Origin: an uncultured virus (IMG/VR IMGVR_UViG_3300004805_000005)
Taxonomy: Duplodnaviria; Heunggongvirae; Uroviricota; Caudoviricetes
Reading direction: 5' to 3' (one strand)
Length of the DNA: 20,000 nt
Virus record (IMG/VR): IMGVR_UViG_3300004805_000005
In this document: positions 1,727 to 19,732 of the stretch, piece by piece
How positions within the stretch are numbered: the stretch's first letter is position 1
How the letters are laid out: each line of letters starts with the position of its first letter
Position numbers and translations under genes: made by a program
Notes under the pieces: model-generated
What the model was told of the DNA's origin: nothing
The model's database searches: none
Seen by the model: only the letters and a program-made list of their open reading frames with translations

Positions 1727-2326
1727 TCAGATCAATTGCATATCTAGCTGATTAAATATAAATTCAAACGAACACTCAATTTCTTCTGGATCTCTGTAAC
1801 TATATTCATAACTTCCAAGTTTTGTGACAAAACAACTGGTAAAAGTAAACTCAACTTTTTTATTGTTATATTCATCTAAGGCAAATACTGTTATAGGTGT
1901 AGTATAGTCATATAACGTCTTTGGCATTTGTTCAGGATATTCACCAGCTTTAAATATATTAGGTCCACCATAGGTGCTTGCTAGTGGATCGTTCAATAGT
2001 TGTAACCATTTCCATATTAACCAATAATTTTTGAATTCATTATCAACGGAGAATTTAACAGTAACTGGTTCATATGCAGGACGATCAAACGAGGTTACAT
2101 TATAATTTTGCCCAGAATAATGTAATTGATTCGCATTTACTTGGATTGTTGGTATATTGATACTGTAAATAGAAAACTGCATACTATCTAAATTTATGAA
2201 TTTGTTTTCTCTGACACTTTTTGAATTTATTGTCTTCAAAATGTTAGGAATCGTAAGGATAAGTTGGAATTTATCCTTACGAGCTTTATTCAGGGATGCT
2301 TGAATTATGTTATTTTGGTCAGACAT
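1727..2326 (-). CDS. Tail tube terminator / tail completion protein (T4 gp3-like)
   Basis: YEPVTVKFSVDNEFKNYWLIWKWL and ITVFALDEYNNKKVEFTFTSCFVTKLGSYEYSY..DPEEIEC resemble T4 gp3 as recalled (YDPLIVRFIVDEELKSW..., ITLYILD...VSDLSEVEFSY); tail-tube fold; adjacent to the sheath gene. Confidence 0.72.
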   Translation of the reverse strand: MSDQNNIIQASLNKARKDKFQLILTIPNILKTINSKSVRENKFINLDSMQFSIYSINIPTIQVNANQLHYSGQNYNVTSFDRPAYEPVTVKFSVDNEFKNYWLIWKWLQLLNDPLASTYGGPNIFKAGEYPEQMPKTLYDYTTPITVFALDEYNNKKVEFTFTSCFVTKLGSYEYSYRDPEEIECSFEFIFNQLDMQLI

Positions 2327-2329
2327 CTG

Positions 2330-2746
2330 TTACCCCAAATCAGTTGGACCTGCGTGTACTTCATCTGTATTATCAGATTCCATGCCATCCATATCTGCCG
2401 ATTCTGGTTCTGCTCCATCGTATTCACTTAAATATTTCTCTAATGCTTGATATAATCCAGTCTCGTCCCCTTCAAGAGTAGACAACAAATCACTAACCGA
2501 CATGCTTAGAATCTGATTACTGAAAGATTCATGATCTTCGGTCACTACCGATTCTTTAATCTTCTTCTTTTTGCCCTTGAGCCAAGGTGGAAGACTCTTC
2601 TTTTTCTTTCCGCCTTTCTTTTCATCCTTCTTGTCTTCGTCCTTGTCTTCTTTCTTATTCTTAAGCCAAGGTGGCAAACCTTTCTTTTTTTCTGTTATAA
2701 GCGATTCCATATACGCACCAAAAATCTTATCTTCGTCAATTCTCAT
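2330..2746 (-). CDS. Hypothetical highly charged protein, probable head-internal/core protein
   Basis: AGGAGA SD; N-terminal AYxxxLxxE leader; duplicated Lys-rich LPPWLK motif; acidic C-terminus. Confidence 0.6.
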   Translation of the reverse strand: MRIDEDKIFGAYMESLITEKKKGLPPWLKNKKEDKDEDKKDEKKGGKKKKSLPPWLKGKKKKIKESVVTEDHESFSNQILSMSVSDLLSTLEGDETGLYQALEKYLSEYDGAEPESADMDGMESDNTDEVHAGPTDLG

Positions 2747-2757
2747 AATGTATTCTC

Positions 2758-3084
2758 CTATTTAAACTGCAATCTTTTCTTTATATTTTCTAATGCAGTA
2801 TTTATTTCAGAATACTTACTAGCATCAAAGTTCATTTTATCTAAATCTTCTTCCAACTCAGTAATATATGAGGTTATATTGTTTTTGAATTGTTCAATCT
2901 TGGTCATTCTATATGTAGTTTTAGTCGCTTGTGCGGTGTCCTTGAGTCCTTTAACGAAAGCCTGGCCACCAGCTTTAGCGGCTTGTCCAGCAGCTTTTAT
3001 ATTATCGAATATTCCTTCATTTACATTCTGTTCTTTAAGTACACTGTAATATGCGTTTTGTAGATCTAGTTTATCGTTATTCAT
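2758..3084 (-). CDS. Hypothetical protein, probable virion-internal protein; paralog of 3084..3785
   Basis: Start overlaps the upstream stop; leader DLQNAYYSVLKE...NEGIFDNIKA. Confidence 0.65.
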   Translation of the reverse strand: MNNDKLDLQNAYYSVLKEQNVNEGIFDNIKAAGQAAKAGGQAFVKGLKDTAQATKTTYRMTKIEQFKNNITSYITELEEDLDKMNFDASKYSEINTALENIKKRLQFK

Positions 3085-3785
3085 TACATTCCTTCTCTTA
3101 TAATTTGAGCGTTAGTTTGTTTACAAAAGTTTTTAAAACTTGAACATGCTTCTGGCAAGTTATCATATGGAGCATCTTTCCTTCTTTTTGATAACATTCT
3201 TTCTTTGATTTTGTCTCTATATCTCTTAGATCTTAATGCCTTTAGTTTCTTTTTTCTATCTTCTTTTCGAAGTTGTTCTCTGGTATTCTTTTTAGGTGCT
3301 GGTGCTGATACTTTAGGTGCTGGTGCTGATACTTTAGGTGCTGGTGCTGGTGCTGATACTTTAGATAATGGTGGAGGTTGAGACATATTTGGTGGTGTAT
3401 TGGCTGATGGTGGAGTTATTTTACGCAAACCACTAATCAACTTATTAAGATTTTGTAGAATATCGGCTATGTTTGGATCTTCTTTAGATGCATTCTGAAG
3501 ATCGTCGGAAATATTGTTCATCTCTGTATTGGCCTTTTCTATGAAATCATTTATTCTAGTAGAAAATGCCTGTGTGTTAGCCGCTTTCCCAACATCACCA
3601 GAACCAGCTACAAAAGTTCCTTTTATACCAGAACTCCCCTTTTCGCCTGACCACATGTTTTTAAATCCGGCCCCTATTTGTTTAGCTCCGGCTTTAAGTC
3701 CTTGGGCATTGGCTTTAAATCGGTCAAACATACCCTCTTCGAGTATTTTTGTATAAATATCTTCAAGATCTTTGTTTTTATTCAT
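3084..3785 (-). CDS. Hypothetical protein with Pro/Ala-rich linker and basic C-terminus, probable virion-internal protein
   Basis: Leader DLEDIYTKILEEGMFDRFKA; KVSAPAP repeats; AGGA SD and late-type motif upstream. Confidence 0.65.
   Translation of the reverse strand: MNKNKDLEDIYTKILEEGMFDRFKANAQGLKAGAKQIGAGFKNMWSGEKGSSGIKGTFVAGSGDVGKAANTQAFSTRINDFIEKANTEMNNISDDLQNASKEDPNIADILQNLNKLISGLRKITPPSANTPPNMSQPPPLSKVSAPAPAPKVSAPAPKVSAPAPKKNTREQLRKEDRKKKLKALRSKRYRDKIKERMLSKRRKDAPYDNLPEACSSFKNFCKQTNAQIIREGM
3291..3364. repeat. Coding tandem repeat, 21-nt unit TTTAGGTGCTGGTGCTGATAC (two exact units, one 27-nt expanded unit, one partial)
   Basis: Read directly; encodes KVSAPAP(AP) repeats on the minus strand. 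Confidence 0.9.
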
Positions 3786-3796
3786 ATTATATATCC

Positions 3797-3808
3797 TACA
3801 ATTATTTA
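3797..3808 (-). promoter_or_regulatory. Late-promoter-like motif TAAATAATTGTA
   Basis: Identical 12-mer to the one upstream of the terminase (12852-12863); intergenic, just upstream of the ATG at 3785. Confidence 0.6.
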
Positions 3809-3818
3809 TGATTTTCTT

Positions 3819-4391
3819 CTATGTTTTTGGCGATCTTGCAATTATAAGATTTCCTTTGCGGATTACATCATTAAAACACCTTTGAATTTCTAGTATATAT
3901 TCTTCCGTTTTCTTATAGTTTTGCCAACCCATAGAAGTTTCTCTGCCTATTCCATCACCAGCAACTTTTCCTTTATTAGTATATCCCTCAAAGATCAAGA
4001 AATATGCTATTCCATCAGATTTTATAGACTTCATTGCTTGTTGAATTACTCTTTCCCTTATACTAGACTCTTTAATTACATTCAAAACATTATTAACCGT
4101 AGCCGTATCTGTTGGATTTTTATCGATATTCTGCTGTGATATTTTATTATGCTCATTAGATCTATTAAATTTATCAATAACAATATTAGTTATACCTATA
4201 CTATTTAAATATTCTGTAGCAATATCATATCTACCTCCACCAATATCAACATTTCGAGTTCCAGATTTAAATAGATTTGGAATCTTGAACACAGAAGCTA
4301 TTTGAGGCCTAGACGTTTTTTCAGAACTATATTCTTGATTTATATTCTCTGTTAGATATATTGATTTTATATTTTCGATATCTGTATTCAT
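3819..4391 (-). CDS. Class I SAM-dependent methyltransferase
   Basis: Motif I NVDIGGGRYD, acidic residue after beta2 (VIDKFN), DTATVNNVLNVI, and LKxxG-like MKSIKSDGIAYF. Substrate unknown. Confidence 0.78.
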   Translation of the reverse strand: MNTDIENIKSIYLTENINQEYSSEKTSRPQIASVFKIPNLFKSGTRNVDIGGGRYDIATEYLNSIGITNIVIDKFNRSNEHNKISQQNIDKNPTDTATVNNVLNVIKESSIRERVIQQAMKSIKSDGIAYFLIFEGYTNKGKVAGDGIGRETSMGWQNYKKTEEYILEIQRCFNDVIRKGNLIIARSPKT

Positions 4392-4393
4392 AT

Positions 4394-4405
4394 TAATAAT
4401 ATTTA
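4394..4405 (-). promoter_or_regulatory. Late-promoter-like motif TAAATATTATTA directly before the methyltransferase ATG
   Basis: Fits TAARTA-N4-TA; only 2 nt separate it from the ATG. Confidence 0.5.
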
Positions 4406-4413
4406 GTTAACTC

Positions 4414-4441
4414 TTGACCTTTTGTATATATATGATATCAT
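4414..4441 (+). promoter_or_regulatory. Sigma70-like promoter TTGACC-16-(TGn)TATCAT
   Basis: -35 and extended -10 match in the divergent intergenic region; same CTTGAC...TGnTA pattern as at 6343 and 17111. Confidence 0.5.
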
Positions 4442-4478
4442 GTTGACATGCATATTAAACCAGATAAATATGGATATT

Positions 4479-4796
4479 ATGAATAAACTACTACAGTTCT
4501 TGTTAAGACTATTCCGAATTGGATTAATATATAGAGGAATGTACGCCATTCATAGTGGAGATAAAATAGGTGCCTTCTTTGTTTATGTAAAAGAAGAAAA
4601 CCAAGGTAATTGTTATGCTATTCTAACAATGCCAAATCCAATGGAAGCTCTATATGTAAAGGTTTCAGAAATAAAATTCGACTTAAAATATGGTAATATA
4701 AAGTTAGTTAGGCGAATTCCGATAGATGTATACGAAGTGTGCAAAGTAAATTTTCAATATTACGCAAAAAAGTCAGGAATATATGTCGGTCGATAA
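4479..4796 (+). CDS. Hypothetical protein; likely start ATG 4479 (or 4470) rather than TTG 4422
   Basis: ORF overlaps the RNase H start; the upstream extension runs through promoter-like sequence; TAAATATGGATA motif at 4465-4476. Confidence 0.65.
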   Translation: MNKLLQFLLRLFRIGLIYRGMYAIHSGDKIGAFFVYVKEENQGNCYAILTMPNPMEALYVKVSEIKFDLKYGNIKLVRRIPIDVYEVCKVNFQYYAKKSGIYVGR

Positions 4797-5685
4797 TTTA
4801 ATAATTGACGGAACAAACCTAGAGTTTAAGGTGTTTTATGTTACTAGATCACCTAATGAGACTACTGAATCAGAACACCCAGATGAACAATATAATTGTA
4901 CCATAAAATATCTACAAATGTTCCATAGACTAGTAGAAAAATTCAATCCTACCAATATCTACGCTTCTTGGGACAAACGACTAAGCTATAATTCAACTAA
5001 TTTCAGAAAAATCATGATGGATGGCCAGTATAAAGCTGGACACTCAAAACCGCCTGAAATTCAAGAAATGTATGATCAAGAAATAAAGCTTATTGAGATA
5101 TTAGAAACGTTGGGCGTTAAGAACATATATCCCAATGTACTAGAAGCAGATGATGTGTGTGCTTGGTTGGCTCATACGTTAACAGGCACAAATATGGTGG
5201 TATCGGGAGATCAAGATCTTCTACAGCTAATAACCCCAAAAACATCTGTATATAACACAAAAGATATAATAACATATGATAACTTTGAAGCTAAGAAAGG
5301 AATCAAACCAGAGAACTTCACATTATTTAAAGCCATTAAAGGAGATACATCAGACAATATAAAGGGGTTAGAAGGATATGGTGAGGTTCGATCCCGAAAA
5401 CTGGCATCAAACTGGAACGAATCAACCCTAACTGAAGAGTATAATAATATTATATTACGAAATATTAAGTTAATGGATTTGAGATATGGTTATAATCATC
5501 AAGAAGGGGAGAGGCAGAAATATGAAGAACAATTTAAATATACTAATACTATAAAGGGAGATTTCAATAAGTTTCTAGCCCTGTGTACTAAATATGAATT
5601 TATGTCTATAATTAAAGATCATTCCAAGTGGAAACGGATAATAAATCGAAATAATATTATAGATTTTATAGCTAAGTTAAGCTAA
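4783..5685 (+). CDS. rnh: RNase H / 5'-3' exonuclease (T4 Rnh, FEN1/PIN family)
   Basis: IIDGTN, WD...NFRK...YKAG, EADD, VSGDQDLLQL, and H3TH motif KAIKGDTSDNIKGLEGYG; AGGAA SD. Confidence 0.9.
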   Translation: MSVDNLIIDGTNLEFKVFYVTRSPNETTESEHPDEQYNCTIKYLQMFHRLVEKFNPTNIYASWDKRLSYNSTNFRKIMMDGQYKAGHSKPPEIQEMYDQEIKLIEILETLGVKNIYPNVLEADDVCAWLAHTLTGTNMVVSGDQDLLQLITPKTSVYNTKDIITYDNFEAKKGIKPENFTLFKAIKGDTSDNIKGLEGYGEVRSRKLASNWNESTLTEEYNNIILRNIKLMDLRYGYNHQEGERQKYEEQFKYTNTIKGDFNKFLALCTKYEFMSIIKDHSKWKRIINRNNIIDFIAKLS

Positions 5686-5694
5686 ATAGTTATA
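5683..5694 (+). promoter_or_regulatory. Late-promoter-like motif TAAATAGTTATA
   Basis: Identical 12-mer to the sheath promoter; followed by AAGGA SD and ATG 5711. Confidence 0.65.
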
Positions 5695-5710
5695 CAACAA
5701 GGAATAATAT

Positions 5711-5911
5711 ATGTCAGATCAAGTTCATCAATTAACTCAATTATCATGTAATATGTGTGGCCAGAGCGGAGTCATTCCTCGCACAGAAACATACTTCGAT
5801 AGGTTCGCACAAGAAACTATCACAGAAGCGGTATGGCAATGCTCTCGCTGTGGCTCACGCTTTAGCTCTGGTATTGTATCTCGCGTAAAAGAAACAAATG
5901 AAAAAGAATAA
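5711..5911 (+). CDS. Small zinc-ribbon protein
   Basis: CNMC...CSRC pairs; good SD. Confidence 0.7.
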   Translation: MSDQVHQLTQLSCNMCGQSGVIPRTETYFDRFAQETITEAVWQCSRCGSRFSSGIVSRVKETNEKE

Positions 5912-6365
5912 ATCCGAAATATTGGATAGTATCATAACCGAAGCTATGGACGCTGGTGGCACCTTATTTGGTGGAGCGGCTTATGGTGGTTCTGGTACAT
6001 TCTCATATTCCCAGCAAGCTGGTGCAAAAACATGGGCACCAAAAAGCTCATCTATGCGATCCACTACAGCTGATCCTCATGGATACAATGTCAAGGATAT
6101 TGGAGATGAAGAACATGAATTTCACCACCAAGCCCCCAAGAAACGTCCATTTCCGCTTGAGACTATTAATGATTTTCTAGCACAAGCTTATATTGATTTG
6201 ACTAATGCCGAAATACAGCTAAGAACATGCAAAAAATATAATGCTATTTTAGATACGAACATGGAAAAGAAAGCGTTACTAAAAAATATACATAAAAAAA
6301 CCATAGCTATGAAAAGAATGATAAGAAGTATGGCGGAAGATCTTGACAGAATATCGTTTTCGTGA
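5898..6365 (+). CDS. Hypothetical protein, possible head-internal protein
   Basis: 155-aa ORF overlapping the upstream gene; leader ILDSIITE followed by a Gly-rich segment and a helical C-terminus. Confidence 0.65.
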   Translation: MKKNKSEILDSIITEAMDAGGTLFGGAAYGGSGTFSYSQQAGAKTWAPKSSSMRSTTADPHGYNVKDIGDEEHEFHHQAPKKRPFPLETINDFLAQAYIDLTNAEIQLRTCKKYNAILDTNMEKKALLKNIHKKTIAMKRMIRSMAEDLDRISFS

Positions 6366-6371
6366 TAAGAT
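6343..6371 (+). promoter_or_regulatory. Sigma70-like promoter TTGACA-17-(TGn)TAAGAT
   Basis: Perfect -35, 17-nt spacer, extended -10; in-frame ATG at 6379 lies 7 nt downstream. Confidence 0.7.
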
Positions 6372-6378
6372 ACTAACT

Positions 6379-6621
6379 ATGGATACTCTAAGAGAAAAGA
6401 AAGAAATACGTGGACTAAATGTTACCTGCTTTAAACAAAGCGGTGTTAATATAATGTGCAAGATAAACATAACCCCCAGCGATGCTGATGAGTTGTGCGA
6501 AAGAACAAAATCAGGACTCTTTAAAAACAAAGAATTCCATGATAGATTCATTAATATGATAGTTACTAGACTAGATACTCTGTTACGAGAAGAAAAGGAA
6601 AAATTAAATGCCACAAAATAA
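6379..6621 (+). CDS. Hypothetical protein; likely start ATG 6379
   Basis: The track's TTG start at 6343 is the -35 hexamer and overlaps the upstream gene; MDTLREKK... is the more plausible start. Confidence 0.6.
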   Translation: MDTLREKKEIRGLNVTCFKQSGVNIMCKINITPSDADELCERTKSGLFKNKEFHDRFINMIVTRLDTLLREEKEKLNATK

Positions 6622-10632: not shown

Positions 10633-10718
10633 TAGCAGTAAGAACATCAACTAGTAATCGATGTTCAACCACTAGGGAACTAATGGCTGTCCTGCTAGAG
10701 ATACTTATAGGGAACGTA

Positions 10719-11840
10719 ATGAAATCAATCAAAATAAAGCTCTTAGACCAAAATTCTTCCAAAACCAATAAGCTTCTTTCTATTTTATCTGATCTTGGAT
10801 TGATTTCAAAAGCGTATCTTCCAATAAGACACAAAGAGATTCAAGACAAAACTTATCTACCATTCAAAGAACATTATTCGAACTTTCGTGTCTTATATCC
10901 TTCTATGAACTCTGGCGTTATACAATCCCATCTTCGATCATTGGATTCTTCTATCAAAATCTATATCGGTTGGTGTAAGAAGAAACATAAGCTGGTTTCT
11001 TTTCCTGATCACATTAAAACGTCTATTCCTCTTCGAAACGATATGTTTTCATTTGAATACAACGAAGAAACCAAAACATTTGACGCATGGCTAAAATTCC
11101 TCCGTCTATACTTTCCTCTATCTCTTTGCTCATATCACAAAAAAGCACTACAAGACATGGAATCTATTTCAGATTCTTCCATTATCAAACACAACGGAAC
11201 CTTATATCTTCGATTGGTCTTCAAAACAAAGGAAAAGACTATTTCTACTAACAAATCCATAGGAATAGATATTGGAATAGCCAAACCAATAGTCTGCTCG
11301 GATGGAAAGCAATTCGGCTCTGGTCGATTTATCAAACACAAGAAACTTGAATTTGGTAAAAAGAGAGCCAGAAACCAATCTAAGAAAGAAGCAATTCTAC
11401 AAACACAATCTCGATGGACAAACGATTTGAATCATAAACTCTCCCGTGAGTTGGTCGACTATTGCCTGTCTCAAGACATAGACGTTCTAGGTCTTGAGAA
11501 GTTGGAAGGCACTCAGCTATCAAACAGGAGATTCAGGAAGTACAATTGGGCATTCAAGGACTTACTCAGTAAGATAACCTATAAGGCCGAATTGGCTGGA
11601 CTGAGAGTCATAAGTGTTGACCCCAGAGGAACGAGTCAGACTTGTTCTTGCTGTGGTCTGAAGGATAAGACCAACAGGATTTCTCAAAGCCTATACGTAT
11701 GCTCGTGTGGGTCTGTGATGAATGCTGACATCAATGCGGCTAAAAACATTCAACGCCTTTCGACGTTGAATGGGTCACAAATGAATCTGACCAACGGATG
11801 CCTTGTACCGGAAACCCAGCAATCTTTAGTGGCTGGGTAG
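10719..11840 (+). CDS. tnpB: RNA-guided endonuclease TnpB
   Basis: RuvC-I IGIDIG, RuvC-II GLEKL, zinc finger TSQTCSCCG...CSCG, RuvC-III NADINAAKNI; D/E/D triad intact. Likely start MKSIKIKL at 10719 (AGGGA SD). Confidence 0.92.
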   Translation: MKSIKIKLLDQNSSKTNKLLSILSDLGLISKAYLPIRHKEIQDKTYLPFKEHYSNFRVLYPSMNSGVIQSHLRSLDSSIKIYIGWCKKKHKLVSFPDHIKTSIPLRNDMFSFEYNEETKTFDAWLKFLRLYFPLSLCSYHKKALQDMESISDSSIIKHNGTLYLRLVFKTKEKTISTNKSIGIDIGIAKPIVCSDGKQFGSGRFIKHKKLEFGKKRARNQSKKEAILQTQSRWTNDLNHKLSRELVDYCLSQDIDVLGLEKLEGTQLSNRRFRKYNWAFKDLLSKITYKAELAGLRVISVDPRGTSQTCSCCGLKDKTNRISQSLYVCSCGSVMNADINAAKNIQRLSTLNGSQMNLTNGCLVPETQQSLVAG

Positions 11841-12849: not shown

Positions 12850-12863
12850 TATAAATAATTGTA
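12850..12863 (+). promoter_or_regulatory. T4-type late promoter TATAAATA(ATTGTA) for terminase fragment 1
   Basis: Exact TATAAATA at 12850-12857; ATG at 12867. Confidence 0.72.
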
Positions 12864-12866
12864 TAT

Positions 12867-13523
12867 ATGAAAAAACAAATAACGGCTGGAATTAACAACG
12901 ATGATCTCGATTATGACCAAACATATCTAAGAAATAAGCGTCTACCTAAGGCAGACGTAGAGTTTACATGGACACCAGAAATGGTGGCAGAGATCAAGAA
13001 ATGTACGGAAGACGTACAATATTTTGCAAGTAATTATTTCTATATCGTAACAAGTGATGATGGTAAACAAAAAATTAAATTGTATACTGTACAGAAACGT
13101 GCGTTAAAAGCCCTGCAAAAATATAGATTTAATATCATAAATGCATCCCGACAAACTGGAAAAACAACGCTAATGACAATTTATGCTCTTTGGATGACTT
13201 GTTTCGAGGAATATAAACGTGTTGTTATTGTCGCTAACAAGGAAAATACCGCTATTATGATTCTAAGGCGTATTGCCTTGGCCTATGAAGAGCTTCCAAA
13301 CTGGCTAAAACCCGGAGCAGTTCAGTATGGAAAGAAAGAAATCATATTCGGAAATCATTCAAGTATAGGTATTAGTACAACTACTGGATCGGCTGTAAGA
13401 GGAGACACGGTAAATTGTGTCGATGGAACAGGTATGGTCAACATAATAGATAACACTGGAATTATATATAATATACCATTAGAACTTCTTTCTCAAGTCG
13501 AAACCGTGAATATAAATGTGTAA
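12867..13523 (+). CDS. terL: Large terminase (gp17-like) fragment 1: N-terminal ATPase part (183 aa) plus split-intein IntN1 (35 aa, from 13416)
   Basis: Q motif LYTVQ, Walker A SRQTGKTT, ANK...YEELPNWL, AVRG; then CVDGTGMVNI...IPLELL, an intein block-A-like tail. Confidence 0.93.
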   Translation: MKKQITAGINNDDLDYDQTYLRNKRLPKADVEFTWTPEMVAEIKKCTEDVQYFASNYFYIVTSDDGKQKIKLYTVQKRALKALQKYRFNIINASRQTGKTTLMTIYALWMTCFEEYKRVVIVANKENTAIMILRRIALAYEELPNWLKPGAVQYGKKEIIFGNHSSIGISTTTGSAVRGDTVNCVDGTGMVNIIDNTGIIYNIPLELLSQVETVNINV

Positions 13524-13529
13524 TTTATA

Positions 13530-13541
13530 TAAGTATATGTA
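13530..13541 (+). promoter_or_regulatory. Late-promoter-like motif TAAGTATATGTA followed by AGAGG SD for terminase fragment 2
   Basis: Fits TAARTA-N4-TA in the 27-nt gap between fragments 1 and 2. Confidence 0.5.
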
Positions 13542-13550
13542 GAGGTTAAT

Positions 13551-15188
13551 ATGTTAGCAGATATAATAAATAATTCAAACAATCATAGTATAATTGCGTT
13601 TATAAAACATAATAAAGAATTGCAAAATGAATTAATAGACAAAACAAAATATTTAAACAATTTCTATGTTTATAGAGACATAACACAAAGATTATATCAT
13701 TATATGAATGATATTAAAATCATACCCAGAGATAAACATGGATGGTATAAAAAATTTGAATCTTTAGATAATGGGTACGGAGAAAAGTTACAGCCAGTTA
13801 GACTCGGAGAATTTAGCAAACTATCTGTACAGGATATAACAAATTATATATGTAGTGTGGAAAGCATTCCATCAGATACATATTTGATAGAATTTATTAA
13901 AAATAAAACCAATTTCCTAGATCCATACAATCCATCGATTCCATTAAGATTATCATATATAAAAGAAAATATCAATCATCCTATATTTACTACCGAAAAA
14001 CACACCACATTACTAAAACCAACAAGAAAACCTAAAAAATATATTATAGATAATTATAGACAATATCTAGCAGAAGATAATAAAATATTGTTCGTAAAAA
14101 AATGGTTGTTGTCTACTGGATCACACCGAAAAAGAATAACAAAATCAATAAAAGCTATCCCTATGATATGTGATTATATCAACGCATTTGCAATAGAACA
14201 TAAATTAGATATTACAGACTATTTTCAAATATCATATCATATGGTATATAATATAACTACATATCCAAATTGTTCTTGCTGTGGAAAGAGTATCGATAAG
14301 AAAAGGTTTAATTCACACTATTGTGCATATCCAAAAACATGTTCTATGTACTGTAATAATATATTAAGAGAAAACATACAGAAAAGACTCATAGCCAATA
14401 AAACCAACAGCGGTAATTTTAATACCAATATTGGGAAAAACGAAGAATATCTATTGAGACTGATATCTAAACTTAAGAAATTAAATATAACAAAAACCCA
14501 TAGAATTGGATCGTATTTCGTAGATGGCATAGATATAGATAAACATATATGCATCGAAGTACAGGAAAAATATCATCTATATAAAAATAGGTTTGAAAAG
14601 GATAAAACAAAATTTGAACACATTATTATAAATGGATATAATATTTTATGTGTATTTGATCTAACTGGCATCAATGAAAAGGGATTAACATACCTAAAAT
14701 ATATAGAATATTTTAAAAATAAATATAATGAAAAGATTACATTTATTAGTATTCTACCATCCAAAACAAAAATATTAACACAGAACGGTTGGAGTATATT
14801 CTGTGGTATAAAAAAATCAAACATACCACAAAATACAATAACAATACAAAGCAAAAACAATCAAATAACATGTACACCAAAACATTTACTTTTATGTAAT
14901 GAAAAGTTCATATCCGCAAAGGATATTAAGGTAGGGGACGTACTAGATTCCTTCGATGACATTAATAAAAATAAAATAATTAATATCCATAATACAACCG
15001 AAAGAATAGTTTATGATGTTATAGAAACTGAAGACAATACTTTTATTTATAATAATTTAATAATTCATAACTGTATAATTATTGATGAATGTCTTGGTGG
15101 AAGTGAAACTATAGATATCAAAAACAAACAAACCGGAGAAATACGAACTATACCAATAGAACATCTTCTCTTGGAAGAATATAAATAA
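13551..15188 (+). CDS. terL: Terminase fragment 2: putative homing endonuclease (~400 aa), IntC1, 6-aa extein CIIIDE (Walker B, 15072-15089), IntN2 (32 aa)
   Basis: Zn finger CSCC...CSMYC and nuclease-like YFVDG...IEVQEKYH; KILTQNGW, block B TCTPKH, KVGD, block F VYDV, block G IHN|C; CIIIDE; then CLGGSETIDI...IPIEHL. Confidence 0.88.
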   Translation: MLADIINNSNNHSIIAFIKHNKELQNELIDKTKYLNNFYVYRDITQRLYHYMNDIKIIPRDKHGWYKKFESLDNGYGEKLQPVRLGEFSKLSVQDITNYICSVESIPSDTYLIEFIKNKTNFLDPYNPSIPLRLSYIKENINHPIFTTEKHTTLLKPTRKPKKYIIDNYRQYLAEDNKILFVKKWLLSTGSHRKRITKSIKAIPMICDYINAFAIEHKLDITDYFQISYHMVYNITTYPNCSCCGKSIDKKRFNSHYCAYPKTCSMYCNNILRENIQKRLIANKTNSGNFNTNIGKNEEYLLRLISKLKKLNITKTHRIGSYFVDGIDIDKHICIEVQEKYHLYKNRFEKDKTKFEHIIINGYNILCVFDLTGINEKGLTYLKYIEYFKNKYNEKITFISILPSKTKILTQNGWSIFCGIKKSNIPQNTITIQSKNNQITCTPKHLLLCNEKFISAKDIKVGDVLDSFDDINKNKIINIHNTTERIVYDVIETEDNTFIYNNLIIHNCIIIDECLGGSETIDIKNKQTGEIRTIPIEHLLLEEYK

Positions 15189-15189
15189 C

Positions 15190-15921
15190 ATGAAAACCAC
15201 AAAAAAAATAAACGAGTGGCAAATATTAACCCCAATAGGATGGTCAGATTTTGGTGGTGTAAAACAATCTAAACGAACAGATACCATTAAATTGATATTT
15301 TCTGATAACCGATCATTAGTTTGTACACCAGAACATAAAATAAAAAATATTAATGATATATTCATATCTGCCAAAGATTCACTAAACCAAAAAATATTAA
15401 CACAGAACGGAGAAACTACAATAGTTGATATAATCTATATGACAGATGATTTATTAGTATATGATATATTAAACGTAGACAAGCAAAATGAATTCTATAG
15501 CAGTAATATAGTGAGTCATAACTGTGCCCATATCGAAGACCATCTGATGAAAGATTTCTGGGCATCCGTTATTCCTACTATTTCATCATCCAAGAAAAGA
15601 ACAACAAAGATTTTCATGGTATCTACACCTAAAGGAACTGGAAATATATTCTATAAGATATTTCAAAAGGCTCTCAAAGAAGAATCCGACGAAAACATGA
15701 AATGGCATGCCGAAGAAATTCATTGGTATGATATTCCCGGAAGAGGAAAATTATGGAAAGCTGACATGGTAGAAGCTTTACATGGGGATAAGTTGCTTTT
15801 CGAACAAGAATTTAATTGTTGTTGTGCCTCTGGATGTACCGTTACTATATTAGATACTTTAACAAACCAACAAAAACAAGTTACATTAGATGAATTATAT
15901 AGAAAAATCCAAGAAAATTAA
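15190..15921 (+). CDS. terL: Terminase fragment 3: IntC2 (111 aa), extein (99 aa, 15523-15819), IntN3 (33 aa)
   Basis: ILTPIGW, CTPEH, VYDI, VSHN|C; extein CAHI...IPTISS...STPKG (coupling motif)...HWYDIPGR...FEQEFNC; then CCASGCTVTI...VTLDELY. Confidence 0.92.
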   Translation: MKTTKKINEWQILTPIGWSDFGGVKQSKRTDTIKLIFSDNRSLVCTPEHKIKNINDIFISAKDSLNQKILTQNGETTIVDIIYMTDDLLVYDILNVDKQNEFYSSNIVSHNCAHIEDHLMKDFWASVIPTISSSKKRTTKIFMVSTPKGTGNIFYKIFQKALKEESDENMKWHAEEIHWYDIPGRGKLWKADMVEALHGDKLLFEQEFNCCCASGCTVTILDTLTNQQKQVTLDELYRKIQEN

Positions 15922-15932
15922 ACGGAACCCAA

Positions 15933-17108
15933 ATGAATAATAGATATAAAATTCTCACCCCCACAGGATTTCAACATTTTACAGGTATTCGTAAATTATC
16001 TGGAGAGTTGTATGAATTAAAAACTAATACTTGTACTATAAGCGCAACGAAATATCATCCATTTATGTGCAATGGAAACAAAACCCCCCTAGCTGCACTA
16101 TATTCTGGAGATGTTATAGATACTATCAATGGAACAGAAAACATCATTTCAATAACAAAACTACATAAGACAGATAATGTATATGATATTATTGGTGTTG
16201 AAAATGGTGAGATGTATTATTGTAATGATATTCTATCACATAATTGCTTTCTAGAAACAGGCGATTCAGCCATTGATATAGATCTGTTAAATGAATTAAC
16301 AGAAAAGTGTCGAGAACCTGAACATATATTCGAAGATGGTCACTATAAGGTATGGAGAGAGCCACAAGGAAACCATATCTATGGAATAGGCGTAGATGTA
16401 GGAGAAGGTATAGGAAAGGCCGCTTCGGTGGTACAAGTACTAGATTTTACAGACTTAACAGACATTCATCAAGTAGCTATGTACTCTGATCGGTATATTC
16501 ATCCTACTAGATTTGCTGGAATTATCAATCGAATCGCGCATCACTTTGGATGCCCACCCGTTTTAATCGAAAGAAATAACATAGGAAGCGAAGTTATTGC
16601 CATATTGAATGAAATTCATCATTATGATAATATTGTTGCCTGTAATCCAGAGTCTTTAGCCTATGGAGATATCAGGCCCGGAATCTTATCACATACTAAT
16701 ACTAAATTAAGCGGTGTGATGAACCTAAGATATTGGTTGAATATATCCAGAGTCGTTAATCTATATGATGCCGGAACGGTTCAGGAATTGAAAACCTTCG
16801 TCAGATATCCAAACGGATCTTGGAAGAAGAAACAAGGCGAAGATGTATTTGATGATAGAGTTATGGCTCTTGTATGGACACTATTTTTATTAGAGCCTGA
16901 TGTAGCTGAACGATATTATGATATTGTTGAGACGGATGATAATGGAAAACCACTAAAGATGGCGGCATATGTTATTCAACAAAATACTATGTTTAAATTA
17001 GATCCATTCTTCCAACAGACACCAAATGCTCCTATGCCTTCTTTCTTTAGTATGTCCCCTTCAGAAGATTTTGATGATCTGAGAAGAGAAGGATGGACAA
17101 GAGCATAG
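15933..17108 (+). CDS. terL: Terminase fragment 4: IntC3 (104 aa) plus nuclease domain (287 aa, from 16245)
   Basis: KILTPTGF, ATKYH, SGD, VYDI, LSHN|C; RNase H-like nuclease motifs IGVDVGEG, IERNN, DDRVMAL. Confidence 0.93.
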   Translation: MNNRYKILTPTGFQHFTGIRKLSGELYELKTNTCTISATKYHPFMCNGNKTPLAALYSGDVIDTINGTENIISITKLHKTDNVYDIIGVENGEMYYCNDILSHNCFLETGDSAIDIDLLNELTEKCREPEHIFEDGHYKVWREPQGNHIYGIGVDVGEGIGKAASVVQVLDFTDLTDIHQVAMYSDRYIHPTRFAGIINRIAHHFGCPPVLIERNNIGSEVIAILNEIHHYDNIVACNPESLAYGDIRPGILSHTNTKLSGVMNLRYWLNISRVVNLYDAGTVQELKTFVRYPNGSWKKKQGEDVFDDRVMALVWTLFLLEPDVAERYYDIVETDDNGKPLKMAAYVIQQNTMFKLDPFFQQTPNAPMPSFFSMSPSEDFDDLRREGWTRA

Positions 17109-17110
17109 TC

Positions 17111-17138
17111 TTGACTTTTATTAGAAGTATGTTAAGAT
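17111..17138 (+). promoter_or_regulatory. Sigma70-like promoter TTGACT-16-(TGn)TAAGAT
   Basis: Same -10 hexamer as at 6366; ATG 17145 follows 6 nt later. Confidence 0.6.
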
Positions 17139-17144
17139 ATTGAA

Positions 17145-17396
17145 ATGAACGAAGAACAAAAACCAATCGAATATCACCACGAGCTAACTGCAACCTTCAA
17201 GAGCAATATGGCCCCTCTTTGGCTCGTATTCAATAACAATATTTTCAACACACAAAACATTACTAATATCGAACGAATGCCAAACGGTGTGTTTATATAT
17301 ACAATTGATAGAAAAATACATACAGTAGAAGTAACAGATGTTAAAACTGTGTGGGAATCTCTACAGAAGGTGTTCTCTGAAGGTGTTACGGGTTAA
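17145..17396 (+). CDS. Hypothetical protein (83 aa)
   Basis: Fills the gap between terL and the convergent kamA; has its own promoter; stops overlap as TTAA. Confidence 0.65.
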   Translation: MNEEQKPIEYHHELTATFKSNMAPLWLVFNNNIFNTQNITNIERMPNGVFIYTIDRKIHTVEVTDVKTVWESLQKVFSEGVTG

Positions 17397-19732
17397 TTCA
17401 CTCTAGGATACTCGCTTATTCCACCAAATAGATTTTGGAAAATAACAGTATCCTTTTTTATTTCCTTTATATAGTTAGGAAGAAGCGGTATTTTTCCCTT
17501 TCCATCCTGTAGATCAACAATAAAAGACGGAACGCCTAATCCACTTATGTGCTTTCTTAAATAATCCATGACTTCTAATCCCTTTTCGATTGAAGTTTGG
17601 AAGTGATTCGTGCCTGTTACCTTGTCACAGCTAAAGATATAGTAAGGTCTAACCCTGAACGTCAGAAGTTTCCTGCATAATTCAGCCATCACTACAGGAT
17701 CATCGTTGATTCCTTTAAGCAATACACTTTGATTGTTAACTGGAATTCCCTTTTCTATCATCTTCAAACAGGCTTTCTTAGATTCTTCTGTTAGTTCATT
17801 AGGATGATTGAAGTGTGTATTCACGAATATAGGATGATATTTGTTTATCATGTTGACTAACTCACTGGTAATCCTTTGTGGCATGACAACCGGAGTACGA
17901 GTTCCAATACGAATGATCTCAACAGATTTAACAGATCGGATCTTGGAGATTATCTTCTCCAATTTAGAAGTAGACATGGTAAAAGCATCTCCACCAGAGA
18001 TGATAACATCTTTAATTTCGCTATGTAGGGTTAGATATTCTACTATTTTTTCTAATTGGCAATCTGTTAAATGATAATCTTTAGAACCGGCTACTCTTTT
18101 TCTAGTGCAATTATGGACAGACGCAAATTCTGCAAGATAGCTTTCGTCGCCTGTAACAGAAAGATCATAGAAAATTTCTTTGACGAATGGTTTTCTTTTT
18201 AAAATGTCTGATACTCTGCAAAAAATATAGCCATTATGTATAAAGGATTCGGATTTTGAAGAAATGGTATCTTTTTGTATACCAAGCCATTTATTGTAAC
18301 CATTTTCATCAAGTATTCTTATTTTATGCATTATTTTTAGGTTGTTTAGTTTTCTTCCATTAATACATACATCTGTTCTATTTTCTTCTTGGTGATAAAT
18401 AGAAGGCATATATCCAAGAGAAACCAACAACATAAAAATTTGACTAGAAAGATTTTCAGAAACAGTATTAAATTCAATAGATTTTGCTTTTGTATGAATT
18501 TTATGTTTATTAGAGAAATATCCATCTCCATCCAGCATTCCGTCAAGTAATTTCTTCTTAAAGCCATCTGTTGCAAAATTTATGATGCTTTCCGATATTG
18601 TTTTTTTATCAGAATATCTGCCGAACAAACTTTCAATTTCTTTGGCTAAGTCTGCATTATAAATCCTTACACAACAATTTGATTTGTTTTTATTTGTCTT
18701 TATTGTTATTTTACCAAGTTTTTGTCGTTTTACTATAATTTCAATTTTTCTTGCCAGTGTTTTTTCTTCTGTTTTGTTTAGCGAAAATCTAATGCATATT
18801 GGTTTGCCATTTTTTCTTTTTGGGATATCTCCTTCTGCTACATATAGTCCAAATAAATACGCCATCTCTTCGTTTTCGTATAGTTTATAATTTTGTAATG
18901 GCAAATTGTTTGTTTTTGGAATTGGAATACAAACATAGTCTCCTATTTCTATTTCGGAAGCATTTATAAAATTAGGTTTGAACTCTGTAACTCTATTAGG
19001 ATGTCTTTTCGCACATTGTTTTCTATTTGGCTTACAGACGCATTTTTCTCCACAATTACATAGAATATCTTTTCTTTTTAAGATTAAGAATGGATGCTCC
19101 TGTGTTGTTTCTATTTTTTGACTTCTTGATGTTTTTAATATTAAAACATCTTTCTTATATGTCCTATTAAACACATCATATACAGTACCAATTCCACCAG
19201 TATGTGTAATAACTGTATCGCCAATAATTATATCTTTAATATCCTTTTGTGTAAAATTGGACATTGTTATTTTTGTTTTGTCGCATAGAGAATGCCTACA
19301 ATACATGCTACATTGGCTCGTAGAGACAATTAACGCCCTGTCTGGGTATCTATGCACCAATCCATCCATAACAGTATCCTCTTCCTCGTGAAGGGGATCG
19401 TTGGATAAGAAGCTAGGATTATCTAATTCCAGAGGATTAGGAATGCATTGGCTGAAAATAGGATCACTATAATCAAACTTTCTTATCAGAGAGAAATAGT
19501 AAGGAGTTATTGCCAAGGGAAAACTCTGTTCGGTTTTTGATATTTCTTCAGAAAGAGAGAAGTGTTCCTTGCTCAATAGATTTTTCAGCCCATCAGAAGA
19601 CTTTATTCGGTTCTTAAGTTGCCATCTCCAGTCGCCCCAACCTTTCGATTGAGGCTTTCTACTACCGGGTTCTTCCGGTTCATTAATGTTGTCTATATTA
19701 GTTAAATTCGGCGTATCAATTTTGTGTATCAT
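17393..19732 (-). CDS. kamA: KamA-family radical SAM enzyme (lysine 2,3-aminomutase-like), intein-containing; ~385 aa after splicing
   Basis: WxDWRWQLKNRI, ITPYY, DPLxEE, GLVHRYPDR, CSMYCRH|CTRKR, ISGGD, RIGTRTPVVMPQRI, THFNHP, NQSVLLKGIND, PYY, and GKIP (PLP lysine); AAGGAG SD. Confidence 0.92.
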   Translation of the reverse strand: MIHKIDTPNLTNIDNINEPEEPGSRKPQSKGWGDWRWQLKNRIKSSDGLKNLLSKEHFSLSEEISKTEQSFPLAITPYYFSLIRKFDYSDPIFSQCIPNPLELDNPSFLSNDPLHEEEDTVMDGLVHRYPDRALIVSTSQCSMYCRHSLCDKTKITMSNFTQKDIKDIIIGDTVITHTGGIGTVYDVFNRTYKKDVLILKTSRSQKIETTQEHPFLILKRKDILCNCGEKCVCKPNRKQCAKRHPNRVTEFKPNFINASEIEIGDYVCIPIPKTNNLPLQNYKLYENEEMAYLFGLYVAEGDIPKRKNGKPICIRFSLNKTEEKTLARKIEIIVKRQKLGKITIKTNKNKSNCCVRIYNADLAKEIESLFGRYSDKKTISESIINFATDGFKKKLLDGMLDGDGYFSNKHKIHTKAKSIEFNTVSENLSSQIFMLLVSLGYMPSIYHQEENRTDVCINGRKLNNLKIMHKIRILDENGYNKWLGIQKDTISSKSESFIHNGYIFCRVSDILKRKPFVKEIFYDLSVTGDESYLAEFASVHNCTRKRVAGSKDYHLTDCQLEKIVEYLTLHSEIKDVIISGGDAFTMSTSKLEKIISKIRSVKSVEIIRIGTRTPVVMPQRITSELVNMINKYHPIFVNTHFNHPNELTEESKKACLKMIEKGIPVNNQSVLLKGINDDPVVMAELCRKLLTFRVRPYYIFSCDKVTGTNHFQTSIEKGLEVMDYLRKHISGLGVPSFIVDLQDGKGKIPLLPNYIKEIKKDTVIFQNLFGGISEYPRVN
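18110..19291 (-). mobile_element. Contiguous intein (394 aa) with LAGLIDADG homing endonuclease
   Basis: Begins SLCDKTKI (Ser1); IGDTVITHTG; block B TTQEHPF; LAGLIDADG motifs LFGLYVAEG and LLDGMLDGDG; block F FYDLSV; ends VHN|C. Confidence 0.93.

Follow-up and report, generated by a model that had tools for sequence, protein, structure and literature searches.

The closest described systems to the locus reported here are the atypically split inteins GOS-TerL, AceL-TerL, and Cat (PDB 6DSL), which likewise interrupt a large terminase (TerL) of the T4 type, are split after block A, start with a cysteine (Cys1), and are followed by a second cysteine at the +1 position. In the portions of the literature on which we draw, known inteins of this kind have N-terminal halves (IntN) of 25-37 amino acids (aa) and C-terminal halves (IntC) of about 104-115 aa (PMC11766414; Dassa et al. 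2009, PMC2677866). They have been described as single breaks. We analyzed a 20,000-nucleotide (nt) stretch of the uncultured Caudoviricetes virus IMGVR_UViG_3300004805_000005, hereafter the window, in which the large terminase of a freshwater T4-like phage is spread over four co-directional open reading frames (ORFs) at 12867-17108 and split by three inteins. At 32-35 aa, the N-halves of this locus fall within the known range, but here three paralogous pairs (34-40% identical) occupy three sites, a six-residue extein separates two of the inteins, and an endonuclease is encoded in frame with one C-half. We think it likely that this TerL is made as four polypeptides assembled by three protein trans-splicing reactions, that the inteins were acquired separately, and that the endonuclease serves the mobility of intein 1.

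The gene order resembles that of the fractured genes of Dassa et al., in which, in the text available to us, a gene for N-extein and IntN, a spacer, a Vsr-like endonuclease ORF, and a gene for IntC and C-extein follow one another on one strand (PMC2677866). The 27-nt spacer of the window lies within the 27-51 nt given there, its genes likewise lie on one strand, and the one terminase locus of that study was also split at an unusually early point. In the same portions of the article, however, the endonuclease is free-standing and the loci are broken once, save for one extra intein piece in DnaE-1, whereas in the window the endonuclease is fused in frame to IntC1 and the gene is broken three times (PMC2677866). 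Gosselin et al. 2025 state that, besides the antisense-encoded ones of their own study, Vsr-like endonucleases had been reported with inteins only in this split-intein context of Dassa et al. Mycobacteriophage terminase inteins likewise sit at ATPase motifs, namely the P-loop, Walker B (TerL1-e), and the C-motif, and in the part of that study we used splicing was judged necessary for terminase function (Kelley et al. 2016, PMC5050341). Those inteins are contiguous and at single sites, and the word "split" does not occur in that text (PMC5050341).

There is also an engineered counterpart. The last 145 residues of ORF2 are arranged like a donor cassette for protein transposition (CatC, short insert, second IntN), as set out in the excerpted description (PMC11185735), and tandem trans-splicing has been engineered with IntC-insert-IntN as well, according to the available portions of two further reports (bioRxiv 10.1101/2020.01.31.925495; PMC12707363). 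Unlike these cassettes, the unit in the window is natural, both of its inteins are atypically split, it inserts a catalytic motif into an essential enzyme, and it has two separate recipient chains plus a third junction. In a literature search whose coverage ended short of the supplements of Dassa 2009 and of the primary articles on AceL-TerL, GOS-TerL, and Cat, we found no naturally multi-split terminase, no natural gene broken by three split inteins, no very short extein (micro-extein) between split-intein halves, and no in-frame endonuclease-IntC fusion. Split inteins and the logic of fractured genes are known; no earlier account appears to exist of the triple break, the micro-extein, or the fused endonuclease.

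A six-residue extein at the position of Walker B

ORF2 encodes 545 aa and contains, in its own frame, TGT ATA ATT ATT GAT GAA, translated as CIIIDE. Upstream stands NNLIIHN (the end of a longer stretch, IVYDVIETEDNTFIYNNLIIHN), and downstream CLGGSETIDIKNKQTGEIRTIPIEHLLLEEYK and then a stop codon. Residues 404-508 match CatC, the C-fragment of the consensus atypically split Cat intein, to the chain end (PDB 6dsl_B; E = 1.7e-4), with chain position 113 matched by the +1 Cys of intein 1. IntN2, the last 32 residues of ORF2, gave no match of its own in PDB, the fragment being too short, and aligned without gaps to the N-halves of 11 other atypically split inteins. The match to the end of CatC with its +1 Cys, together with the gap-free alignment of the tail, identifies the 18 nt as an extein, as had been proposed in an earlier reading of this DNA made without database searches (the sequence-only reading), which set these 18 nt between two inteins, after the first ends and before the second starts.

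To place the hexapeptide within TerL, we compared the ORFs with T4 gp17. ORF1 residues 19-182 aligned to gp17 86-249 (3ezk; E = 1.8e-29), and since SRQLGKT occupies 161-167 in the 3ezk chain, the chain is numbered as the native protein. When ORF2 and five homologues were combined in a profile, the part from the residue after the +1 Cys onward aligned to gp17 252-IYIDECAFIPN (E = 1.2e-25). N183 of ORF1 falls on gp17 250, C508 of ORF2 on 251, and I509-E513 on 252-256 without gaps, so C508-E513 correspond to gp17 251-256. In gp17, according to the portion of the source available to us, D255 is the Walker B aspartate, E256 is the catalytic glutamate, and a hydrophobic residue, C257 in T4, is needed after E256 (PMC5737356). 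The counterpart of C257 here is the +1 Cys of intein 2.

The hhhhDE motif at gp17 251-256 is that of a T4-type TerL ATPase, and the host of the split inteins is a T4-type large terminase by its gp17 match (E = 9e-30), the profile alignment, and its membership in PHROG terminase families. The alignment thus agrees with the proposal that CIIIDE is the Walker B strand, with its Mg-binding Asp and catalytic Glu. The further estimate that about 1% of ORF2 ends up in the mature enzyme was also accurate, as 6 of 545 residues (1.1%) would reach it, and the predicted doubly spliced tryptic peptide GDTVNCIIIDECAHIEDHLMK agrees with the junctions and with a related locus described below. The core of the sequence-only reading, a Walker B strand carried on a six-residue extein, is confirmed by these alignments.

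Three atypically split inteins in one gene

All three inteins are atypically split and of the AceL/GOS/Cat-TerL kind, with N-halves of 35, 32, and 33 aa and C-halves of 104, 111, and 104 aa. Each is split after block A, with its halves on separate ORFs that have their own start codons, and each C-half holds blocks B, F, and G. Over its full length, with the +1 Cys in register, CatC aligns to each of IntC1, IntC2, and IntC3 (E = 1.7e-4, 4.6e-7, and 1.4e-5, respectively). The residues of class 1 inteins are present in all three: Cys1 as C184 of ORF1, C514 of ORF2, and C211 of ORF3, TxxH at 442-445, 46-49, and 39-42, and HN/C at 506-508, 110-112, and 103-105 of the corresponding C-half chains. 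The block B His and both flanking Cys do not vary among the IntC-extein-IntN units that were aligned (13 of 13), and the intein part of an AlphaFold model of ORF2 matches the VidaL, gp41-1, and Cat folds. A function in trans-splicing is strongly implied.

The spacers between the four ORFs measure 27, 1, and 11 nt. ORF1 and ORF2 share a frame, ORF3 lies in another, and between ORF1 and ORF2 stand two TAA codons, GAGG, and an ATG. Read-through of the ORF1 stop is ruled out by the two in-frame TAA codons, and an intron reading was rejected because the 20-kb window holds no Rfam family (hence no intron model) and no tRNA. The predicted spliced TerL has 575 aa (183 + 6 + 99 + 287). A megablast search with the locus found no match in the phage collection, and the best protein matches to the nuclease domain in that collection reach only about 31% identity.

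We next compared the inteins with one another and with their relatives. Identity among the window's inteins is 34-40% for C-halves and 21-38% for N-halves. Among the ten best matches to each, the same insertion site recurs in 7 (pre-Walker B), 7 (post-DE), and 5 (nuclease site), as labeled by regular expressions on the downstream extein, while the other two inteins of the window rank only 58th-170th as relatives of each. The G+C content is 0.25-0.30 in the endonuclease and C-halves versus 0.36-0.38 in the exteins. Because the nearest relatives share the insertion site and the base composition contrasts, the data fit separate acquisition of the three inteins, presumably through site-specific homing, rather than duplication within the gene.

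A related terminase, selection, and independent reads

A 238-kb viral contig (L001) carries a TerL that is about 75-84% identical in the exteins and broken at the first site only. There, GDTVN is followed by an IntN, a free-standing GIY-YIG gene, and an IntC ending LSHQ/CIIIDEAAHIEEHLMK, after which the gene is uninterrupted through EQEFNCCFLETGDSA. The same hexapeptide lies in this uninterrupted stretch (LSHQ/CIIIDEAAHIEE), contiguous with the rest of TerL. Exteins 1, 3, and 4 of the window align to L001 with zero indels at all three junctions, and between the end of the L001 intein and the start of the extein-3 match there are exactly six residues, CIIIDE. Collinearity with L001 also places the start of intein 3 at CCASG. 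Across the exteins, the proportion of differing nonsynonymous sites (pN) was 0.11-0.16 and that of synonymous sites (pS) about 0.8, at which synonymous sites are saturated; in the hexapeptide codons, 4 of 18 bases differ, with 4 synonymous and 0 nonsynonymous changes. The low pN against a saturated pS indicates purifying selection on the exteins and on the hexapeptide among them.

In L001 (terminase region 3344-6494), the first site holds a different intein allele from that of the window, and the other two sites are without inteins. Just upstream (1779-3341), L001 encodes a 520-aa protein with about 15 tandem NQLTSLQGAPQTV repeats that is absent from the window.

Parts of the locus were present in four freshwater or metagenome runs, at least two of them freshwater runs of different studies; one run (X1) may have been where this DNA came from. 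Contigs from another, a freshwater run of a separate study (X2), are identical to the window over 12944-13698, spanning the ORF1/ORF2 junction, over 14923-15091, spanning the end of IntC1 and the hexapeptide, and over 15872-17150, spanning the ORF3/ORF4 junction; they cover two of the three junctions, with the ORF2/ORF3 junction outside their coverage. The sequence of the locus is not an assembly artefact. That the splits are sequencing or assembly errors in what are really contiguous inteins is barely credible: ORF1 and ORF2 do share a frame, but two in-frame TAA codons, a ribosome site, and an ATG lie between them, ORF3 is in another frame, the independent run is identical over two junctions, and 25 related proteins end at the same place, 30-42 aa past Cys1.

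The same comparisons bear on whether this is a decaying, non-functional terminase overrun by selfish elements, with packaging performed by another gene or the genome itself defective. Three mobile elements in one gene, seen through a 20-kb window, would suit such a history. All four ORFs are nevertheless open, the exteins are under strong purifying selection relative to L001, the junctions are without indels, the same sequence occurs in at least two freshwater runs of different studies, and the architecture recurs in diverged relatives. We therefore judge decay to be very improbable.

Recurrence of IntC-micro-extein-IntN units

To assess how far this layout extends, we performed a HMMER search with the 145-aa IntC1-CIIIDE-IntN2 segment, which yielded 530 representative proteins at E ≤ 0.001. 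We then parsed 156 proteins (the best 150 of the 530, ORF2 homologues, and the window's other ORFs) using local hidden Markov models of both halves. In 35 of the 156, the end of a C-half is followed within 14 residues by the start of an N-half, a proportion that is no unbiased frequency, the matches having been ranked by likeness to an IntC-extein-IntN query. The exteins among these 35 measure 0 (1 case), 3 (1), 4 (1), 6 (14), 8 (11), 9 (1), 11 (5), and 14 (1) residues, and 31 contain hhhhDE. Split forms, with the chain ending 30-42 residues past Cys1, account for 25 of the 35; in 8 others, such as P0021 and P0041, the second intein runs on in the same chain. The remaining 2 were classed as neither, one being P0097, which has a TnsA-like nuclease after the N-half. 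P0007 (CVFVDE), which looks contiguous by eye, is outside the 35 of the parse. Thirteen of the split forms are ORFs of only 134-162 aa made up of IntC, micro-extein, and IntN, with nothing ahead of the C-half and no endonuclease domain. The parse of 156 indicates that the layout recurs in many diverged lineages.

Other micro-exteins were seen in P0151, P0133, P0060, and P0097: CGK (3 aa, apparently of the P-loop), a zero-length case, and CIVLSTPRG (coupling motif). Some metagenomic terminases (P0007, P0011, P0012, and P0021) contain at least four inteins, a mixture of split and contiguous, at the P-loop, pre-Walker B, post-DE, coupling motif, and nuclease sites; P0021 has an additional large insert with LAGLIDADG-like sequence. 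A search with P0051 reached a contig (L004, 3857-6434) on which a clamp-loader-like AAA+ gene is broken in its P-loop (GPGSGK/C) by a split intein with a short N-half. A 374-aa endonuclease-like ORF lies between the halves, followed by an IntC ending LSHN/TSSAKV. The break in this clamp-loader-like gene indicates that split inteins with short N-halves are not confined to terminase.

A putative Vsr-like endonuclease fused to an intein half

The N-terminal 400 residues of ORF2 are shared by five homologues (30-49% identity), again in frame with an intein C-half; the endonuclease-IntC fusion is common to 6 of 6 family members. P0002 (49% identity) has an architecture identical to that of ORF2 with the hexapeptide CIILDE, P0003 has an 11-residue extein, CILIDEASHIE, ahead of its second N-half, and in P0004-P0006 the fusion runs on into the rest of TerL. 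Two of the homologues are named very-short-patch-repair endonuclease in their source records. DUF559 was detected in 4 of the 6 members at E ≤ 0.01 (best 1e-5), with the match of the window's own ORF2 below threshold (E = 0.018; 15.4 bits versus a cut-off of 20.6). The ORF2 model has a mean predicted local distance difference test score (pLDDT) of 67.8, higher in the endonuclease part; its core at 296-395 is alpha-beta-beta-beta-alpha-beta-alpha, and it matches RAP/Vsr-type folds (9i05_Xl, E = 2.6e-5; 1cw0_A, rank 48). The family profile matches the homing endonuclease I-Bth0305I (3r3p; E = 7.9e-5). EDxHD is the name for the Vsr-like homing endonuclease kind of I-Bth0305I. I-Bth0305I is intron-encoded (PDB 3R3P; PMC3239194), whereas the ORF2 endonuclease is fused to an intein half and has the motif E-V-Q-E-K-x-H.

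Across the family, the nuclease core is the best-kept part (40-54% identity versus 20-39% for IntC1), and D325, D328, E336, E339, K340, and H342 are invariant. This conservation fits an active enzyme, and we infer that the endonuclease is active. No internal start codon was found ahead of IntC1 in ORF2, and neither a stop nor a start lies between the endonuclease and IntC1; inteins 2 and 3 are without an endonuclease. The sequence-only reading had held that the endonuclease is locked into the genome. This holds for the intein halves, which are hard to lose because nothing short of an exact deletion, or exchange for an intein-less allele, would remove them. The endonuclease is not locked in but separable, as seen in the 13 endonuclease-less relatives and the free-standing GIY-YIG gene of L001.

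Searches of viral contigs with ORF2 or P0002 as query returned no related locus, and a family-alignment search of metagenome contigs returned only L002, a free-standing paralogue of the N-terminal module, and a short match, L003. The L002 gene (3950-5686) encodes 578 aa, shares the ORF2 N-terminal module (QRLYH region), and adjoins a major-capsid-like gene on a 319-kb contig.

Expression signals of ORF2

ORF2 had been proposed to possess its own promoter and Shine-Dalgarno sequence. The latter is present, as GAGG five bases ahead of the ATG. A dedicated promoter found no support: the exact T4-type late promoter element TATAAATA occurs at chance level in the window (6 found versus 5.09 expected, not enriched) with no copy ahead of ORF2, and nearby there is only the near-match ATATAAATG (13511-13518, 7 of 8 positions), inside the end of ORF1. 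Sigma-70-like sites numbered 43 in this AT-rich window against a shuffle mean of 31.3 (standard deviation 5.4) and were given no weight. A predicted hairpin pairs part of the ORF2 ribosome site (-9.4 kcal/mol, z score -1.27), but 24 of 200 shuffles fold as well, which is not significant. No terminator-like site was found on the plus strand between the four ORFs. The short spacers and the lack of such a site fit a single transcript, and the start of ORF3 1 nt after the ORF2 stop fits coupled translation. Exact copies of TATAAATA stand at 12850-12857 (+), nine bases before the ORF1 start, and at 15180-15187, overlapping the ORF2 stop and two bases ahead of the ORF3 ATG.

In the portions of Dassa et al. 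available to us, 15 of 16 endonuclease genes are described as preceded by such hairpins, and TATAAATA occurs with ten of them (PMC2677866). The near-match and the hairpin on the ribosome site of ORF2 resemble these elements, and with the GAGG present it could be that ORF2 is separately controlled by a late promoter and a hairpin-masked ribosome site, so that the timing or extent of ATPase activation depends on how the Walker B fragment is supplied. We consider this unlikely: the hairpin is no better than shuffles, the exact element is not enriched, no terminator-like site separates the ORFs, ORF3 begins 1 nt past the ORF2 stop, and the 13 endonuclease-less mini-ORFs show the fragment without endonuclease-type control. 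The idea in the sequence-only reading that supply of the ORF2 fragment gates ATPase activation is speculation.

Proposed assembly

In the assembly that we favor, IntC1 of the ORF2 product would pair with IntN1 of the ORF1 product, and IntN2 of the ORF2 product with IntC2 of the ORF3 product. The two splicing reactions would keep only the hexapeptide from ORF2 (GDTVN-CIIIDE-CAHIEDH), and the third intein would join the ATPase part to the nuclease domain, giving the 575-aa TerL. No ATPase site should be possible before the first two ligations, since the coupling motif, Walker A, and Walker B are distributed over three polypeptides. The Vsr-like endonuclease on IntC1 would be the mobility function of intein 1, translated together with an essential fragment.

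Several points weigh against this assembly. Splicing and the mature 575-aa TerL are predictions, and two active HINT folds must work on junctions six residues apart. Our view is limited to the 20-kb window, and a second intact terminase gene may lie elsewhere in the genome. In the window's own ORFs, the Pfam Intein_splicing match is below its curated cut-off, as is the endonuclease Pfam match, and the ranking of matches by likeness to the query tempers the recurrence count. Finally, the three inteins belong to one family in which, per the excerpted source, close homologues such as GOS-TerL and AceL-TerL can exchange N-halves (PMC11766414), which makes mis-pairing a real risk; orthogonality of the three pairs is our assumption. 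In a predicted complex of the ORF1 tail, IntC1-CIIIDE-IntN2, and IntC2, one control scored within 0.20, and the prediction was not used as evidence.

The difficulty of two intein active sites with a six-residue spacer, which could hinder the chemistry, would be avoided if the fragments assembled without covalent ligation. The intein halves would then be docking domains of a non-covalent four-chain terminase, as in the phage Aeh1 ribonucleotide reductase, a fragmented enzyme that, in the text available to us, shows how the product of a phage gene interrupted by a mobile element can assemble without splicing (PMC3045599). We find this quite unlikely. All three inteins, and the aligned units too, retain Cys1, TxxH, HN, and the +1 Cys, a set that mere docking would not be expected to preserve, and a Walker B strand bearing two bulky HINT domains is unlikely to fit the ATPase core. 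In the part of the mycobacteriophage study on which we draw, mapping of intein sites onto the TerL pentamer suggested no complex with the intein present (PMC5050341). Covalent assembly by trans-splicing remains the account that we prefer.

Coordinates and neighboring genes

Table 1. Features of the terminase locus in the window. Residue numbers are those of the ORF named.
Feature	Position	Strand	Basis
ORF1: extein 1 (183 aa) + IntN1 (35 aa)	12867-13523	+	
TerL extein 1, 183 aa; N-terminal ATPase part, Walker A SRQTGKT, end GDTVN	12867-13415	+	gp17 86-249; phrog_5989 terminase large subunit, E 1.1e-44; 76% identity to L001
IntN1, 35 aa (CVDGTGMVNIID...), N-half of split intein 1; stop TAA 13521-13523, second in-frame TAA 13530	13416-13520	+	Junction placed as in L001
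27-nt spacer ORF1/ORF2 with GAGG 13542-13545	13524-13550	+	Sequence inspection
ORF2: endonuclease part (1-403) + IntC1 (404-507) + CIIIDE + IntN2 (32 aa)	13551-15188	+	
Putative homing-endonuclease part of ORF2 (1-403): helical N-terminal module, four-Cys motif, Vsr-like PD-(D/E)xK core (FVDGxD...IEVQEKYH...KD...D)	13551-14759	+	
IntC1 (ORF2 404-507), C-half of split intein 1, in frame with endonuclease; block B T442-PK-H445; end H506-N507	14760-15071	+	CatC 6dsl_B, E 1.7e-4; model fold
CIIIDE extein, Walker B (gp17 251-256): +1 Cys of intein 1, hydrophobic strand, Mg-binding Asp, catalytic Glu	15072-15089	+	gp17 alignment; L001
IntN2, 32 aa (CLGGSETIDIKNKQTGEIRTIP...), N-half of split intein 2; stop 15186-15188	15090-15185	+	IntN alignment
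ORF3: IntC2 (1-111) + extein 3 (99 aa) + IntN3 (33 aa)	15190-15921	+	
IntC2 (ORF3 1-111); ATG 1 nt past ORF2 stop; block B T46-PE-H49; end H110-N111	15190-15522	+	CatC, E 4.6e-7
TerL extein 3, 99 aa: CAHIEDHLMK...MVSTPKG (coupling motif)...EQEFNC	15523-15819	+	84% identity to L001 121-219, gap-free; phrog_2 terminase large subunit
IntN3, 33 aa (CCASGCTVTILD...), N-half of split intein 3; stop 15919-15921	15820-15918	+	L001 collinearity; gap-free IntN alignment
ORF4: IntC3 (1-104) + extein 4 (287 aa)	15933-17108	+	
IntC3 (ORF4 1-104); block B T39-KY-H42; end H103-N104	15933-16244	+	CatC, E 1.4e-5
TerL extein 4, 287 aa: CFLETGDS..., nuclease/translocase domain, including stop	16245-17108	+	75% identity to L001 220-503, gap-free; tblastn matches to annotated T4-like cyanophage terminase large subunits

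Two other genes in the window were noted. At 17393-19732 (minus strand) lies a lysine-2,3-aminomutase-like radical SAM gene with a LAGLIDADG intein, apparently inside the CxxxCxxC iron-sulfur motif; it reads CSMYCRH / SLCDKT...ASVHN / CTRKRV, which would make the third cysteine of the cluster the +1 nucleophile, and the G+C content dips to about 0.28 over the intein insert. At 10683-11840 (plus strand), about 1 kb upstream of the terminase in the late region of this T4-like phage, lies a TnpB/Cas12f-like gene (OrfB_IS605 and TNB domain, E = 2.7e-22) with a G+C content of 0.43-0.45 versus 0.34 for the window.

Implications

A further-reaching scenario, which we regard as doubtful, combines several of these features. 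IntC-micro-extein-IntN units would be natural, widespread peptide-inserting cassettes, through which a selfish element captured the catalytic strand of an essential ATPase. The in-frame endonuclease could not be silenced without loss of the terminase and so would escape the decay phase of the homing cycle, its control elements would time the first packaging ATPase, and three orthogonal split inteins with short N-halves would already be working on a six-residue insert.

If the trans-splicing assembly is right, nature would have its own example of tandem protein trans-splicing at this locus, with one entire gene product serving to deliver six residues, and two intein active sites would be able to work six residues apart. 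Three presumably orthogonal split inteins with N-halves of 32-35 aa, short enough to synthesize, would suit the ligation of multiple fragments and the insertion of peptides within a chain, for which this format is sought. The fusion of an endonuclease to IntC at the split site, rather than at the usual endonuclease insertion point, bears on the origin of split inteins and their endonucleases. For the phage, selfish elements would have dismantled an essential gene, its two Walker motifs, coupling motif, and nuclease spread over four chains, while it remains under purifying selection.

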